From assembly GCA_031423255.1 (NCBI GenBank), contig JANPFD010000239.1, forward strand, positions 1-27,873: a stretch of DNA of 27,873 nt, given 5' to 3'. The position numbers were made by a program, and so were the translations under genes. The notes beneath the pieces were generated by a model, which was not told where the DNA came from, made no database searches, and saw only the letters and a program-made list of their open reading frames with translations. Positions 2,399 through 5,737 of this stretch are shown here, piece by piece (within the stretch, counting starts at the first letter, position 1; every line of letters starts with the position of its first letter). The stretch comes from Myxococcales bacterium. GTDB taxonomy: Bacteria > Myxococcota_A > Polyangia > Fen-1088.

Positions 2399-2472
2399 TG
2401 GACACGGTCAGATTCGAACTGACACTGCCGACGTTCTCGACGTCGTTCCTCTGCCTGTTGGGATACGTGTCC
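2399..2472 (-). tRNA. tRNA with Leu anticodon GAG, class-I structure (C33)
   Basis: Acceptor GGACACG/CGTGTCC, A73. T-arm GTCAG-TTCGAAT-CTGAC. Anticodon arm CGACG-TCGAGAA-CGTCG. Confidence 0.45.
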
Positions 2473-2479
2473 GTGAACG

Positions 2480-2551
2480 TCCTGGCGTCGGGGATCGAAC
2501 CCGAGCCGTCCGCTTATAAAGCGGCCGCTCGCACCAGCGAGCCTCGCCAGG
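2480..2551 (-). tRNA. tRNA with anticodon UAU (Ile-like)
   Basis: Acceptor CCTGGCG/CGCCAGG, A73. D-stem GCTC/GAGC. Anticodon CCGC-TTTATAA-GCGG. T-arm TCGGG-TTCGATC-CCCGA. Confidence 0.5.
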
Positions 2552-2555
2552 CCAG

Positions 2556-2627
2556 CGGTCCCGACGAGGATCGAACTCGCCTATTCCGGTCGACAGCCGG
2601 ACATCCTCACCAGAGGATTACGGGACC
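2556..2627 (-). tRNA. tRNA-Asp (GUC)
   Basis: Acceptor GGTCCCG/CGGGACC, G73. D-stem ATCC/GGAT. Anticodon TCCGG-CTGTCGA-CCGGA. T-arm GCGAG-TTCGATC-CTCGT. Confidence 0.7.
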
Positions 2628-2656
2628 AATCGCGTGGGCAGCGCCCATCAAGGTTG

Positions 2657-2727
2657 TCGGAGCTGACGGAATCGAACCGTCCTCTACGGTGTGTAGGACC
2701 GCGGCCCAACCACTGGACCAAGCTCCG
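2657..2727 (-). tRNA. tRNA-Val (UAC), C33
   Basis: Acceptor CGGAGCT/AGCTCCG, A73. Anticodon GCGGT-CCTACAC-ACCGT. T-arm GACGG-TTCGATT-CCGTC. Confidence 0.55.
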
Positions 2728-2728
2728 G

Positions 2729-2800
2729 TGCGCGCGGGAGGGGTTGAACCTCCGCTCTCCAGCATGTCGGGCTGGCGTCTTTCCGTTCGACCACGCGCGC
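2729..2800 (-). tRNA. tRNA-Val (GAC), C33
   Basis: Acceptor GCGCGCG/CGCGCGC, A73. Anticodon CCAGC-CCGACAT-GCTGG. T-arm GGAGG-TTCAACC-CCTCC. Confidence 0.55.
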
Positions 2801-2801
2801 A

Positions 2802-2871
2802 TACCGGCGGACGGATTCGAACCGTCCCGCACGACCTTATGGGGGTCGCCTGCTCGCCCGAGCTCGCCGGC
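2802..2871 (-). tRNA. tRNA-Met-like (CAU), C33, truncated D-arm
   Basis: Acceptor GCCGGCG/CGCCGGT. Anticodon CGACC-CCCATAA-GGTCG. T-arm GACGG-TTCGAAT-CCGTC. Only ~16 nt between acceptor and anticodon stems. Confidence 0.45.
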
Positions 2872-2875
2872 GTGG

Positions 2876-2947
2876 CGCCCACGGAAGGAGTCGAACCTTC
2901 GCGACCAACGTTCGTAGCGTCGGCGCCGAATCTCCGTCGGCGTGGGC
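2876..2947 (-). tRNA. tRNA-Arg (ACG)
   Basis: Acceptor GCCCACG/CGTGGGC, G73. Anticodon CGACG-CTACGAA-CGTTG. T-arm GAAGG-TTCGACT-CCTTC. Confidence 0.65.
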
Positions 2948-2948
2948 C

Positions 2949-3024
2949 TGGTGTCCGATGCGGGCCTCGAACCCGCGCCTCCGCATTGAAAGAGCGGCAG
3001 CCTCGCCTGCTAGCCCAATCGGAC
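2949..3024 (-). tRNA. tRNA-Glu (UUC), CCA encoded
   Basis: Acceptor GTCCGAT/ATCGGAC, A73 + CCA. Anticodon CCGC(T)-CTTTCAA-(T)GCGG. T-arm GCGGG-TTCGAGG-CCCGC. Confidence 0.55.
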
Positions 3025-3041
3025 AGTCATTGGTGTCGGCA

Positions 3042-3116
3042 TGGTGACCCCAGCGGGTATCGATCCCGCTTCTGCACCTTGAGAGGGTGCCGACCTAGCC
3101 AGTAGTCGATGGGGCC
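3042..3116 (-). tRNA. tRNA-Glu (CUC), CCA encoded
   Basis: Acceptor GGCCCCA/TGGGGTC, A73 + CCA. Anticodon GCACC-CTCTCAA-GGTGC. T-arm GCGGG-ATCGATA-CCCGC. Confidence 0.6.
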
Positions 3117-3121
3117 CTGTG

Positions 3122-3196
3122 CCTCCTCGGCCGGACTCGAACCGGCAACCTCTCGCTTCGGAGGCGAGCGTGGTCATCCATTTCCACCACGAGGAG
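3122..3196 (-). tRNA. tRNA-Arg (CCG)
   Basis: Acceptor CTCCTCG/CGAGGAG, G73. D-stem GTGG/CCAC. Anticodon CTCGC-CTCCGAA-GCGAG. T-arm GCCGG-TTCGAGT-CCGGC. Confidence 0.7.
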
Positions 3197-3201
3197 AGAA
3201 G

Positions 3202-3272
3202 AGCGCGTGGCCGGAGTCGAACCGGCAGGGACGAGATTAGAAGGCTCGCTGGCATCCAGTTGCCGCACGCGC
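3202..3272 (-). tRNA. tRNA-Arg-like (UCU), enlarged 9-nt anticodon loop
   Basis: Acceptor GCGCGTG/CACGCGC. Anticodon region GCGAG-CCTTCTAAT-CTCGT. T-arm GCCGG-TTCGACT-CCGGC. Confidence 0.45.
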
Positions 3273-3276
3273 GCTG

Positions 3277-4297: not shown

Positions 4298-4305
4298 ATC
4301 GGCGC

Positions 4306-4377
4306 TGGTGGAGGCGGAGGGTAACGCTCCCTCCTGACCTGCTTGCAAGGCAGGGTCACAGCCTTCTGTACGCCCCC
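4306..4377 (-). tRNA. tRNA-Ala-like (UGC), G3:U70, CCA encoded, miniature D-arm, variant T-loop
   Basis: Acceptor GGGGGCG/CGCCTCC (G3:U70), A73 + CCA. Anticodon CCTGC-CTTGCAA-GCAGG. T-arm GAGGG-AGCGTTA-CCCTC. D region CAG-AAGG-CTG. Confidence 0.5.
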
Positions 4378-4381
4378 AGGG

Positions 4382-4453
4382 TCAGCGTGGGGTGAATCGA
4401 ACACCCATGATCTCGGTTCCAGGCCGAGTGACCAGCCATTGGCCCACACGCTG
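4382..4453 (-). tRNA. tRNA-Pro (UGG), C33
   Basis: Acceptor CAGCGTG/CACGCTG, A73. D-stem GGCC/GGTC. Anticodon CTCGG-CCTGGAA-CCGAG. T-arm GGGTG-TTCGATT-CACCC. Confidence 0.6.
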
Positions 4454-4460
4454 ATGGTTG

Positions 4461-4533
4461 GGTGACCGCCCGGTATCGATCCGGGACCTTCTCGTTCACA
4501 GCGAGACGTGCAGAGCCACTACACCACGGCCAC
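4461..4533 (-). tRNA. tRNA-His (GUG)
   Basis: Acceptor GTGGCCG/CGGTCAC, C73 (His identity). D-stem GTGT/GCAC. Anticodon TCTCG-CTGTGAA-CGAGA. T-arm CCCGG-ATCGATA-CCGGG. Confidence 0.65.
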
Positions 4534-4653
4534 CATCACAAACATCCACAAGAGACCCGACGGATGGGCGCGAGGGCCATCGTGGAGTTGTTCACCGCTC
4601 GGCACGTCACGGGATATCCGTGGCGTCCGCCGCGCTCTCCTTCCGTCGGTATC

Positions 4654-4728
4654 TGGTAGAGGCGCTGGGGATCGAACCCAGCCCTGCCGCTTATCGAGCG
4701 GCTGCACGTCCCATCGTGCTACGCCTCT
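4654..4728 (-). tRNA. tRNA-Ile (GAU), C33, CCA encoded
   Basis: Acceptor AGAGGCG/CGCCTCT, A73 + CCA. D-stem GCAC/GTGC. Anticodon GCCGC-TCGATAA-GCGGC. T-arm CTGGG-TTCGATC-CCCAG. Confidence 0.6.
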
Positions 4729-4738
4729 GTTTTGGATC

Positions 4739-4882
4739 GGAACCCTGAAAGGGTTCCGCACCTCCCGCGATAGGTGCGTCCGGGCAAAGCCCGTCCGCAC
4801 CTGCGCGTTGGACGCAAAACCCTGAGAGGGTTCCACACCTCCCGCGTAGGTGCATCTGGGCAAAGCCCGTCCGCACCTGCGG
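4739..4882. repeat. two tandem copies of a ~70-nt structured element (GGAACCCT-GAAAG-GGTTCC hairpin + GCACCT...AGGTGCG...GGGCAAAGCCC...CGCACCT), not tRNA-like
   Basis: Copy 1 is about 4739-4808 and copy 2 about 4818-4882, roughly 85% identical. Each has three stem-loops and an AGGTGCG segment that can pair with either an upstream or a downstream partner. Neither copy has a T-loop or an acceptor pairing. Confidence 0.6.
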
Positions 4883-5051
4883 GCGTTGGTCAGGGTGGCT
4901 GGAACTGCCCCAGCGACCTCCGGCTCCCGAAACCGGCGCTCATCTCACCGAGCTCCACCCTGATGTCGCGTCGGAGGAGGACGGGCTACGCCCGGACTCC
5001 TCCATCGCGGGAAGGGCTGGAAACCCTTTCAGGGGTTCCAGCCAAATGAAG

Positions 5052-5124
5052 TGCCCCCGTCTGGAATCGAACCAGCACCTTCCGCTCTTCAGGCGGACGC
5101 CATCACCAGATCGGCTACAAGGGC
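5052..5124 (-). tRNA. tRNA-Phe (GAA)
   Basis: Acceptor GCCCTTG/CGGGGGC (two G:U pairs), A73. Anticodon TCCGC-CTGAAGA-GCGGA. T-arm GCTGG-TTCGATT-CCAG(A). Confidence 0.6.
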
Positions 5125-5209
5125 ATCGTTGTGGCCGGGGTGGTGCCCGGCCACGGGCATCGTCATCTATTCGGTTGTCAGGGAGCGGGTCGATTGCTCG
5201 ACGAATCTG

Positions 5210-5280
5210 TTCGGGGACGAGGACTCGAACCTCGACATGCAGGGTCAAAGCCTGCCGGCCTGCCATTAGCCGATCCCCGA
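5210..5280 (-). tRNA. tRNA-Gln (UUG)
   Basis: Acceptor TCGGGGA/TCCCCGA. D-stem GGCT/GGCC. Anticodon GCAGG-CTTTGAC-CCTGC. T-arm CGAGG-TTCGAGT-CCTCG. Confidence 0.65.
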
Positions 5281-5304
5281 GTTCTTCTTCTGTTTGTCTT
5301 TGCG

Positions 5305-5375
5305 TTCCGGGACGAGGATTCGAACCTCGACACCTGCGTTCAGAGCGCAGGGGCCTGCCATTAGCCGATCCCGGA
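5305..5375 (-). tRNA. tRNA-Gln (CUG)
   Basis: Acceptor TCCGGGA/TCCCGGA. D-stem GGCT/GGCC. Anticodon CTGCG-CTCTGAA-CGCAG. T-arm CGAGG-TTCGAAT-CCTCG. A close paralog of the preceding Gln gene. Confidence 0.65.
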
Positions 5376-5380
5376 TCACG

Positions 5381-5452
5381 TGGGCCGCCAGGGACTCGAA
5401 CCCTGCTATCTCGATTAAGAGTCGAGTGCTTCGCCATCAAAGCTTGCAGCCC
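5381..5452 (-). tRNA. tRNA-Lys (CUU)
   Basis: Acceptor GGGCTGC/GCGGCCC, A73. D-stem GCTT/AAGC. Anticodon CTCGA-CTCTTAA-TCGAG. T-arm CAGGG-TTCGAGT-CCCTG. Confidence 0.7.
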
Positions 5453-5547
5453 GCTGTATTCGCGTGGGCGCAGCGGGGCGTTGCCACGCGGAGCCCGTTG
5501 CGGGAGGGTGCGGGAACCCTTTCAGGGATCCCGCCAAGATCGTTGGT

Positions 5548-5620
5548 TGCCGCCGGTCGGAATCGAACCGACTCACTCCGGTTTAAAAGACCGGTGCCCA
5601 GCCATTCGGGCGTCGACGGC
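5548..5620 (-). tRNA. tRNA-Lys (UUU)
   Basis: Acceptor GCCGTCG/CGGCGGC, A73. D-stem GCCC/GGGC. Anticodon CCGGT-CTTTTAA-ACCGG. T-arm GTCGG-TTCGATT-CCGAC. Confidence 0.7.
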
Positions 5621-5650
5621 TCGAATAGGCCGCCCGCGCGTTTGCTTGTG

Positions 5651-5737
5651 TGGGAGCGACAGGACTCGAACCTGCGAAGTGCGCGTTGGCACGGCTGGTT
5701 TACGGCCAGCCCCCTTTGCCGCTCGGATGCACGCTCC
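5651..5737 (-). tRNA. tRNA-Tyr (GUA), class II, C33
   Basis: 87 nt. Acceptor GGGAGCG/CGCTCCC, A73. Anticodon GCTGG-CCGTAAA-CCAGC. Long variable arm. T-arm GCAGG-TTCGAGT-CCTGT (one mismatch). Confidence 0.55.

Follow-up and report, generated by a model that had tools for sequence, protein, structure and literature searches.

The stretch analysed here, referred to as the window, comprises 27,873 nucleotides of contig JANPFD010000239.1 from a Myxococcales bacterium (GenBank assembly GCA_031423255.1). It contains an array of tRNA genes in which cytidine repeatedly replaces uridine at position 33 of the anticodon loop (C33 and U33, respectively). The array occupies 4257 bp of the minus strand (1482-5738) and consists of 35 tRNA or tRNA-like genes, ~8 per kb, in which each of the 20 amino acids is represented. 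ARAGORN identified 28 of these genes, all on the minus strand, and the Rfam tRNA model contributed Asp-GTC (2556-2627) and Pro-CGG (4890-4962). The remaining five (Arg-ACG, Thr-TGT, Ser-GCT-like, Trp-CCA and Ala-TGC) were contributed by a cloverleaf search of the gaps together with low-threshold ARAGORN and ViennaRNA folding. Gene order was non-periodic and no tandem amplification was apparent; the direct-repeat families found in the array were merely common T-arm and acceptor motifs, and only Gln-TTG and Gln-CTG formed an alike pair (79%). CCA is encoded by a minority of the 35 genes. An independent Logan assembly of the locus (L001) was identical in sequence, and a megablast search for near-identical DNA in phages or plasmids returned none. 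The genes are as follows, with the methods that support each call.

1482-1554, minus: tRNA-Ala(CGC), U33, G3:U70, beyond the HNH endonuclease gene; ARAGORN, Rfam 54.1 bits
2229-2303, minus: tRNA-Leu(CAA), U33, short variable arm; ARAGORN, Rfam 54.8 bits
2316-2393, minus: tRNA-Leu(CAG), U33, short variable arm; ARAGORN, Rfam 51.8 bits
2398-2472, minus: tRNA-Leu(GAG), C33, loop TCGAGAA, short variable arm, A73; ARAGORN, Rfam 46.3 bits
2479-2551, minus: tRNA-Ile(TAT), UAU anticodon, U33; ARAGORN, Rfam 48.6 bits
2556-2627, minus: tRNA-Asp(GTC), U33, G73; Rfam, cloverleaf search
2656-2727, minus: tRNA-Val(TAC), C33, loop CCTACAC, C1:G72; ARAGORN, Rfam 50.7 bits
2727-2800, minus: tRNA-Val(GAC), C33, loop CCGACAT; ARAGORN, Rfam 61.1 bits
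2802-2871, minus: Met-like tRNA(CAT), C33, loop CCCATAA, 70 nt, 4-nt D-loop, 6-bp anticodon stem; ARAGORN, minimum free energy cloverleaf
2873-2947, minus: tRNA-Arg(ACG), U33, 6-bp anticodon stem, tentative; cloverleaf search, fold
2949-3024, minus: tRNA-Glu(TTC), U33; ARAGORN
3042-3116, minus: tRNA-Glu(CTC), U33, T-loop ATCGATA; ARAGORN
3121-3196, minus: tRNA-Arg(CCG), U33; ARAGORN
3201-3274, minus: tRNA-Arg(TCT), U33, C31.U39 mismatch giving a 9-nt loop; ARAGORN, fold
3276-3348, minus: tRNA-Asn(GTT), U33; ARAGORN
3353-3427, minus: tRNA-Thr(TGT), C33, loop CCTGTAC, T-loop TGCAAGT (G55); low-threshold ARAGORN, cloverleaf search, minimum free energy fold
3428-3500, minus: initiator-like tRNA-Met(CAT), U33, 1:72 mismatch, G29-31:C39-41, T-loop TGCAACT (G55); ARAGORN, Rfam 45.5 bits
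3501-3573, minus: tRNA-Thr(CGT), C33, loop CCCGTAA; ARAGORN, Rfam 46.5 bits
3661-3732, minus: tRNA-Gly(TCC), U33; ARAGORN, Rfam 62.2 bits
3816-3888, minus: tRNA-Gly(GCC), C33, loop CCGCCAG, U73; ARAGORN, Rfam 38.4 bits
3976-4048, minus: tRNA-Cys(GCA), U33, T-loop TGCGAGT; ARAGORN
4050-4136, minus: Ser-GCT-like, U33, T-loop GCAGGAT, tentative; cloverleaf search, fold
4138-4225, minus: tRNA-Ser(CGA), U33, canonical; ARAGORN
4231-4297, minus: tRNA-Trp(CCA), U33, 3-nt D-loop; cloverleaf search, fold
4306-4377, minus: tRNA-Ala(TGC), U33, 4-nt D-loop, T-loop AGCGTTA, G3:U70; cloverleaf search, fold
4379-4454, minus: tRNA-Pro(TGG), C33, loop CCTGGAA; ARAGORN, Rfam 49 bits
4460-4533, minus: tRNA-His(GTG), U33, G-1/C73, T-loop ATCGATA; ARAGORN, Rfam 52.6 bits
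4654-4728, minus: tRNA-Ile(GAT), C33, loop TCGATAA, CCA encoded; ARAGORN, Rfam 50.7 bits
4890-4962, minus: tRNA-Pro(CGG), U33, T-loop GGCAGTT; Rfam
5051-5124, minus: tRNA-Phe(GAA), U33; ARAGORN
5209-5280, minus: tRNA-Gln(TTG), U33; ARAGORN
5304-5375, minus: tRNA-Gln(CTG), U33; ARAGORN
5380-5452, minus: tRNA-Lys(CTT), U33; ARAGORN
5548-5620, minus: tRNA-Lys(TTT), U33; ARAGORN
5650-5738, minus: tRNA-Tyr(GTA), class II, C33, loop CCGTAAA; ARAGORN

U33 is among the most conserved nucleotides in biology and is regarded as a structural requirement of the anticodon loop. It is conserved in elongator tRNAs, the exceptions to U33 being eukaryotic initiators and Candida tRNA-Ser, which carry C33 or G33 (Grosjean & Westhof, PMC5041475). 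A preliminary description of positions 2399-5737, made from the sequence without database searches, had reported C33 in ten genes, or about one third of the set. All ten were recovered here, nine by ARAGORN and Thr-TGT by the cloverleaf search and low-threshold ARAGORN; they represent 10 of the 32 genes within that interval and 10 of 35 (29%) over the whole array. The Rfam covariance model placed C at the second loop position of Val-GAC, Val-TAC and Leu-GAG with a posterior probability near 1, and minimum free energy folding with ViennaRNA reproduced the 7-nt loops of Met-like 2802 and Thr-TGT, the C33 genes with the lowest scores. Independent folding therefore did not yield U33, and shifted loop boundaries are ruled out as a source of the C33 assignment by the agreement of ARAGORN, the Rfam model and free folding. 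Seven of the ten C33 genes scored 38-61 bits against the Rfam tRNA model, for which the gathering score is 29.

Relatives of the array were gathered by means of the endonuclease gene that lies between its first and second tRNA genes:

1607-2128, minus: HNH endonuclease of homing type, 173 aa; Pfam HNH_5 and HNH

Long, non-periodic, horizontally transferred tRNA arrays (L-arrays) have a conserved HNH gene attached and rtcB as a recurrent neighbor or co-regulated gene (Santamaria-Gomez 2021, PMC8421152). The window array lies above the density threshold for this class (at least 20 tRNA genes, at least 2 per kb, one orientation). A total of 1716 homologues of the window HNH protein were found, the closest (67-73% identity) in metagenome-assembled genomes of Polyangia and Myxococcales; identity was 42% with the array-linked HNH of phage Rctr197k and 33% with Anabaena all8564 (E 8e-26). 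Placement of the window in Polyangia/Myxococcota is drawn from the matches at 67-73% and would also suit the sigma-54-dependent RtcR encoded farther along. When genomes, metagenomes and viral contigs were scanned for the HNH, 39 additional arrays were recovered, each with five or more tRNAs. By record, the hosts of these related arrays were Polyangia, Myxococcota, Acidobacteriota, Blastocatellia and Methylomirabilota metagenome-assembled genomes, in addition to metagenomes. Eleven arrays came from IMG/VR viral contigs of between 15 and 168 kb; in four of these contigs the guanine-plus-cytosine (GC) content is only 44-50%. The same HNH was also found in two GenBank phages, Rctr197k and Tunturi_5, each time next to a cluster of 41 tRNA genes; the Tunturi_5 cluster also contains RtcB and a CCA-adding enzyme. 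Given that the array-linked HNH was found in viral contigs, GenBank phages and metagenome-assembled genomes, the HNH-array family is common to large phages and bacterial chromosomes.

Across the 39 related arrays, C33 was present in 120 of 791 tRNAs (~15%), with at least one C33 gene in 37 arrays. By contrast, it was absent from five reference arrays with the same HNH family:

Nostoc delta plasmid (Anabaena array): C33 in 0/24
M. alvei plasmid, 64% GC: C33 in 0/28
Myxococcus phage Mx1: C33 in 0/16
Cyanophage S-CRM01: C33 in 0/14
Acidobacteria phage Tunturi_5: C33 in 0/40

The total of 0/122 differs from the unique tRNAs of 40 related arrays (122 C33, 644 U33) with a Fisher p=6e-9, and C33 as a general trait of L-arrays or phage tRNA clusters is thereby ruled out. 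Non-array tRNAs in the 2.3 Mb of related loci analyzed had U33 in 21/21 cases. GC bias was also rejected as the cause of C33: no correlation with the GC content of the locus was observed (Spearman rho 0.16, p=0.36), C33 occurs in viral arrays of 44-50% GC, and none is present in the 64% GC M. alvei array. Counted over the 30 arrays from the genome and metagenome scans, C33 was distributed among isoacceptors as follows.

Val-TAC: C33 in 16/19
Val-GAC: C33 in 5/5
Thr-CGT: C33 in 12/16
Ser-CGA: C33 in 8/13
Ile-GAT: C33 in 7/16
Leu-GAG: C33 in 7/15
No C33: Arg-ACG, Arg-CCG, Arg-CCT, Asn, Cys, Gly-TCC, both Lys, Leu-CAG, Gln-CTG and Trp

C33 of the window Thr-CGT gene is common to the related arrays L002, L004 and L005, and the window Tyr loop CCGTAAA recurs in L005. 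In phage Rctr197k, 6 of 41 tRNAs carry C33 (Val-GAC, Val-TAC, initiator-like Met, Arg-TCT, Leu-GAG and Leu-TAA), with Val-TAC, Val-GAC, Leu-GAG and Met common to this phage and the window. The preliminary description had treated such features as private to the array. This did not hold, since C33 is common to one environmental branch of the HNH-linked L-array family with phage-borne relatives.

Several properties of the related arrays bear on whether C33 marks decay or constraint. Other normally invariant positions of these genes were largely preserved (G53 98%, T54 95%, C56 100%, A58 99%, C61 98%, D-loop GG 93%). C33 genes had fewer stem defects than U33 genes (0.75 versus 1.29, p=4e-4), slightly more paired positions on average (21.07 versus 20.72) and more frequent canonical T-loops (91% versus 84%). 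In an RNAalifold alignment of 15 Val-TAC genes, 18 of 21 pairs had undergone compensatory double changes and hardly any pairs were broken, with C33 kept in 12 of the 15; judged by eye, Thr-CGT follows the same pattern. Position 33 was restricted to pyrimidines, with one A and no G among the 791 tRNAs. Parsimony on neighbor-joining trees gave 1.71 changes per isoacceptor family at position 33, compared with 3.87 for stem columns, 1.94 for T-loop columns and 1.29 for position 37; position 33 is thus still a slow site, yet ~65 switches were counted over 38 families. No covarying signature of C33 was found in the related arrays at positions 32, 37 or 38 or in the 31-39 pair. Judged from these comparative sequence patterns, the C33 class is inherited, and either tolerated or selected, rather than a product of decay.

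The occurrence of C33 depended on the middle base of the anticodon. In the related arrays, C33 was present in 94 of 349 tRNAs with a purine at position 35 compared with 28 of 418 having a pyrimidine there, an odds ratio of 5.1, and independent C/U33 switches per family were more frequent for purine-35 (2.2) than for pyrimidine-35 (1.2; Mann-Whitney p=0.048). A structural basis for such a rule is available, in that residue 33, through its 2'-OH, makes a stronger contact with N7 when position 35 is a purine than with C5 when it is a pyrimidine (PMC5041475). Cytidine lacks the N3-H that U33 gives to the residue-36 phosphate, so the 2'-OH(33)-N7(R35) contact would be left to hold the turn. The non-U33 precedents, the eukaryotic initiator (CAU) and Candida Ser (CAG), both have A35. 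Given that C33 depends on the anticodon middle base, the loop appears to be under selection for its decoding conformation, and this is the best indirect sign that the tRNAs are used.

The DNA flanking the array contains the following further features.

78-425, plus: tyrosine recombinase of the phage integrase family, C-terminal fragment; Pfam PF00589, matching only profile positions 129-171
633-1037, minus: PIN-domain (VapC-type) toxin, between the integrase fragment and the array; Pfam PIN, 45 bits
1025-1330, minus: small open reading frame upstream of and overlapping the PIN toxin gene; putative antitoxin by position
8656-10257, minus: RtcR; Pfam RtcR and Sigma54_activat
10375-11634, plus: RtcB; Pfam RtcB
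11637-12650, plus: RtcA; Pfam RTC
ends at 13614 and 14375, plus: two RlaP genes; Pfam RlaP

The integrase fragment marks a mobile-element border, and the open reading frame at 1025-1330 is, from its position, probably the antitoxin of the PIN toxin. VapC toxins typically cleave tRNA anticodon loops. The RNA-repair operon (8656-14375) starts 3 kb from the array, with RtcB 4.6 kb away; an S24-like peptidase, a hypothetical protein and an SPFH protein are encoded in between, and these three genes are private to the window locus as judged by tblastn against all loci. The same tblastn comparison of the window neighbors was used to seek a conserved partner gene, such as a modification enzyme or a deaminase, and only the HNH was common. 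RtcB is recurrent beside this HNH family: in addition to the window operon, it was observed in L169 (2291-3394), L183 (23591-24772), L034, L143, L147 and L158. In L169, a 168-kb viral contig, a lone RtcB ligase lies between tRNA genes, and in several Acidobacteria loci RtcB is directly downstream of an HNH gene without any array; the association of this HNH with RtcB may be more fundamental than that with arrays. The window copy of the array is chromosomal in appearance, in that an integrase remnant adjoins it and genes for phage structural proteins are absent from the window; it looks like a chromosomal island, whereas close relatives occur in IMG/VR contigs and Rctr197k. Horizontal transfer of this HNH-linked array in a mobile context is indicated by the integrase fragment and VapBC pair at its border and by its relatives in three phyla, viral contigs and Rctr197k.

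The other irregularities listed in the preliminary description were likewise present. Folding bore out the miniature D-arms of the Trp-like, Ala-like and Met-like genes; all six variant T-loops (TGCAAGT, TGCAACT, TGCGAGT, AGCGTTA, GCAGGAT and ATCGATA) were found; the 9-nt anticodon loop belongs to Arg-TCT (3201-3274), in which the C31.U39 mismatch opens the loop; and the UAU-anticodon gene is Ile-TAT (2479-2551), at 48.6 bits against the Rfam tRNA model. As read from the sequence, identity elements were kept (G3:U70 in both Ala genes, G-1/C73 in His, U73 in Gly and Cys, G73 in Asp, Asn and Trp). Canonical cloverleaf features (G53:C61, T54-Psi55-C56, A58 and G18G19) were present in most genes of the window, the exceptions being G55 in three genes, aberrant T-loops in the Ala-like and Ser-like genes, and miniature D-arms in three. 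Seven genes scored below every Rfam gathering score: Met-like 2802, Arg-ACG 2873, Arg-TCT 3201, Thr-TGT 3353, Ser-like 4050, Trp-like 4231 and Ala-like 4306. Two of these, Met-like 2802 and Thr-TGT 3353, are C33 genes; the former had no Rfam match at E<=1 and the latter no Rfam match. The most deviant of the genes below threshold (Met-like, Ala-like, Trp-like and Ser-like) may be pseudogenes. The Met-like gene at 2802-2871 may be an elongator Met or an Ile2 tRNA and is possibly degenerate, and Met 3428-3500 is probably an initiator to judge from its sequence features. The description of the whole set as evolving functional tRNAs rather than random decay is consequently supported in part: recurrence, covariation, intactness and pyrimidine restriction speak against decay of the C33 class, which is putatively functional, whereas a few of the most deviant genes are probably degenerate.

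Further peculiarities of the tRNAs were observed. In the Val-TAC family the first acceptor pair is C1:G72 in 13 of 15 sequences, versus the usual bacterial G1:C72. The usual bacterial tRNA-Leu is a class II molecule with a long variable arm. The array Leu genes (2229-2472) are 75-78 nt in length and combine a long D-loop with a variable loop of 5 nt, a short-variable-arm form that was found in 90 of 102 Leu genes of related arrays and is similar in the Leu genes of the Anabaena array. Approximately 9% of related-array tRNAs have G55 or C55 in place of U55 (pseudouridine), with T-loops TGCRANT or TCCGANT; the window examples are at 3353-3427, 3428-3500 and 3976-4048, and in related arrays such genes are concentrated in Cys, Leu, Ile and Met. 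U8 was present in only 64% of related-array tRNAs and in 74% of those in control arrays. Animal and plant initiator tRNAs carry C33, and the C33 Met gene of Rctr197k (L184, 17340-17414) has G29-31:C39-41, making it initiator-like with C33; in the window, the initiator-like Met has U33 and a separate Met-like gene has C33. Ile-UAU is a regular array member, of which the related arrays contain 15 different sequences. Such a tRNA would need no lysidine (TilS) to read AUA, suggesting a set built for independence from host modification.

A repeat of ~75 nt is present in the longer tRNA spacers and consists of a GGGAnCCCTnnnAGGGTnCCC hairpin, then CCnCCCGCGA and a second GC-rich hairpin. Copies are located at 1400-1481, 3733-3815, 3889-3975, 4729-4812 and 4806-4889 (these two inverted), 4963-5050 and 5453-5547. 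They correspond to families D4, D7, D13 and D16 of the direct-repeat analysis, and the copies were aligned. The hairpin pattern gave 14 matches versus 0.11 expected, all within the array and none elsewhere in the 27.9-kb window. Single copies were observed inside the related arrays L085, L089 and L094. The module may represent the remnant of a tRNA, a small mobile repeat, or a signal for processing or termination.

Taken together, these data are best explained by a horizontally mobile L-array of phage ancestry in which C33 is a heritable anticodon-loop variant, maintained in intact and functional tRNAs of one branch that spans Myxococcota, Acidobacteriota and Methylomirabilota hosts and large phages. 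This combined reading, drawn from sequence comparisons, is advanced as a whole with moderate confidence. In this model the array would provide a complete spare decoding set of 35 genes, transcribed as a polycistron and then processed, CCA-tailed and charged as in Anabaena. Together with RtcB, it would act as a reserve that sustains translation when housekeeping tRNAs are cleaved, depleted or damaged. The 2'-OH(33)-N7(R35) contact would keep the turn, such that C33 tRNAs would still decode, while the altered loop would present a changed substrate to anticodon nucleases (VapC, HEPN and colicin-type) and to the bacterial machinery for N6-threonylcarbamoyladenosine (t6A). C33 would then be retained because it changes how anticodon-loop-reading proteins recognize the tRNA. 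Resistance to VapC (PMC10264068) and to PARIS AriB (PMC12409363) is known for phage tRNAs with substitutions in the anticodon arm. Moreover, Escherichia coli TsaBCDE is unable to add t6A to a U33C tRNA (PMC8887486), and because the enzyme rejects such a substrate, the C33 Thr, Ile and Met tRNAs are probably without t6A37. A tRNA-damage theme fits the context, namely the bordering VapC-type toxin, the nearby Rtc operon and RtcB inside related phage arrays. In the Anabaena array, translational stress induces 23 of 26 tRNAs, which are also aminoacylated and present in polysomes, and 3 of 26 were not detected as tRNAs (PMC8421152). The Anabaena data indicate that arrays of the L-array kind can function, without amounting to proof for the window array.

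A number of observations weigh against this explanation. We know of no nuclease that is blocked by U33C. The C33-richest isoacceptors (Val, Thr-CGU, Ser-CGA and Leu-GAG) are not classic anticodon-nuclease targets, and Lys, Asn and Arg, which are, have at most 1-2 C33 copies per family in the 40 arrays. A stem-loop with the U33C change is still a normal substrate for the yeast gamma-toxin (PMC2275089). Decoding by Ile, Thr and Met tRNAs should suffer if t6A were lost. In the closest arrays (L002, L004 and L005), the Rtc genes are not conserved as neighbors. The comparison of intactness is biased, in that ARAGORN-based sampling misses degenerate genes, and the purine-35 odds ratio is inflated because the sequences are phylogenetically non-independent. 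Finally, the ~65 gain or loss events and the frequency of only ~15% fit near-neutrality as well.

Near-neutral drift is the main rival, quite possible but less likely than not. Here, the array genes would be supernumerary and rarely expressed, with a relaxed constraint on U33; the mildest change, U to C, would accumulate and be inherited without benefit, and the tRNAs would work equally or slightly worse. Of the 38 isoacceptor families, 28 contain scattered U/C switches, no more than about half of the window C33 states recur in the closest relatives, and other near-invariant positions are loosened too (U8 at 64%, G55/C55 at ~9%), as are the D-arms and T-loops of some window genes. The purine-35 bias is also equally expected if C33 is simply less harmful there. 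However, because none of the 122 tRNAs in five other arrays of the same HNH family has C33, including those of a 64% GC plasmid, relaxed constraint on an array does not by itself yield C33. The lack of correlation with GC content and the greater intactness of C33 genes relative to U33 genes also speak against drift, and Val-TAC, Val-GAC and Thr-CGT hold C33 across deep divergence, with compensatory stem changes.

An improbable alternative is a peculiarity of the host lineages, whose housekeeping tRNAs would use C33 and be copied into the arrays. Arrays with C33 do come from only a few phyla of soil and sediment, but Mx1 (0/16) and Tunturi_5 (0/40) lack C33. This explanation is unlikely because C33 spans three phyla and low-GC viral contigs, moving with the HNH-linked array, and because the dispersed tRNAs had U33 in 21 of 21 cases. 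Pseudogene decay, in which C33 and the other deviant genes would be dead copies, is very improbable as a general account. The seven genes below the Rfam gathering score, two of them with C33, and the three Anabaena genes that were not detected as tRNAs (PMC8421152) are in keeping with it. Nevertheless, the scores of seven C33 genes (38-61 bits), the kept identity elements, the covarying stems, the pyrimidine-only position 33 and the lower number of defects in C33 than in U33 genes largely refute decay for the C33 class, leaving it possible for individual genes (Met-like, Ala-like, Trp-like and Ser-like). Restoration of U33 in the RNA by a C-to-U editing deaminase, giving canonical mature tRNAs, is pure speculation and scarcely credible: the variant is always C and C-to-U tRNA editing is known at other positions in other organisms, but no deaminase gene is conserved beside the arrays, the HNH being the only gene common with the window neighbors, a purine-35 condition would be needless if U were restored, and we know of no bacterial precedent for editing at position 33.

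Much of the element is known. L-arrays, their HNH, the rtcB link and mobile tRNAs that evade tRNA-targeting nucleases have all been published, and it is the C33-rich branch and the purine-35 rule that look new within this known element type. The two main array papers (PMC8421152 and PMC4758250) never mention position 33, and no earlier mention of position 33 or C33 in bacterial or phage arrays was found in full-text searches of literature other than subscription journals and the tRNA databases, so that an earlier notice may exist. A bolder and rather unlikely proposal, built on the same sequence patterns, is that C33 with purine-35 defines an unrecognized natural class of bacterial and phage elongator tRNAs that would decode without the U-turn uridine, spread among soil bacteria by HNH-mobilized phage-derived arrays and kept for escape from anticodon-loop nucleases, the host t6A machinery or both when phage and host or toxins are in conflict. 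The arrays point to a natural reservoir of more than 100 structurally intact C33 elongator tRNA genes, pyrimidine-only at position 33 and mostly with purine-35, on mobile or phage-borne arrays near RNA-repair genes. If active, these genes would constitute a natural experiment on the real need for U33, a testable link among tRNA arrays, RtcB repair and tRNA-targeting toxins or defense, and candidate scaffolds for nuclease-resistant or modification-independent tRNAs. If C33 is mere tolerated drift, it shows the range over which position 33 can relax in vivo and cautions annotation pipelines against scoring C33 genes as pseudogenes.

The closest known system is the trn operon on the delta plasmid of Anabaena/Nostoc sp. 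PCC 7120 (PMC8421152; Tran 2016, PMC4758250), which, like the window array, comprises dozens of same-strand, non-periodic tRNA genes at ~8 per kb. The two also have in common a homologous HNH, an association with rtcB, tRNA genes mostly without encoded CCA, short-arm Leu tRNAs and a mobile context. They differ at position 33, with C33 in 29% of the window genes compared with 0/24 in the Anabaena array and 0/28 in the mycobacterial plasmid array. The branch to which the window belongs (Myxococcota, Acidobacteriota, NC10 and phages) is also outside the phyla with L-arrays in PMC8421152, where Acidobacteria have only accretive arrays.

A second comparison is with phage tRNAs that counter host defense, namely mycobacteriophage C1 tRNAs against VapC (PMC10264068) and T5 tRNA-Lys/Thr/Asn against PARIS AriB (PMC12409363). 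These are likewise supernumerary mobile or viral tRNAs with anticodon-arm changes, and relatives of the window array are found in large phage genomes, some with RtcB. By contrast, the documented phage escape mutations are at nuclease cleavage sites (positions 36-41), not at 33; resistance is experimental there, while the window array is known from sequence, and the window copy appears to be chromosomal rather than phage-borne. The third comparison is with the eukaryotic initiator tRNA-Met (C33) and Candida tRNA-Ser(CAG) (G33) (PMC5041475; PMC8887486), which are themselves functional without U33; both have A35, in keeping with the purine-35 bias of the related arrays. C33 is an anti-determinant for both bacterial and yeast t6A enzymes (PMC8887486). 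The eukaryotic cases are single special-purpose tRNAs, whereas in the related arrays of bacteria and phages C33 extends over many elongator isoacceptors, among them Val, Thr, Leu, Ile, Ser, Pro, Gly and Tyr.

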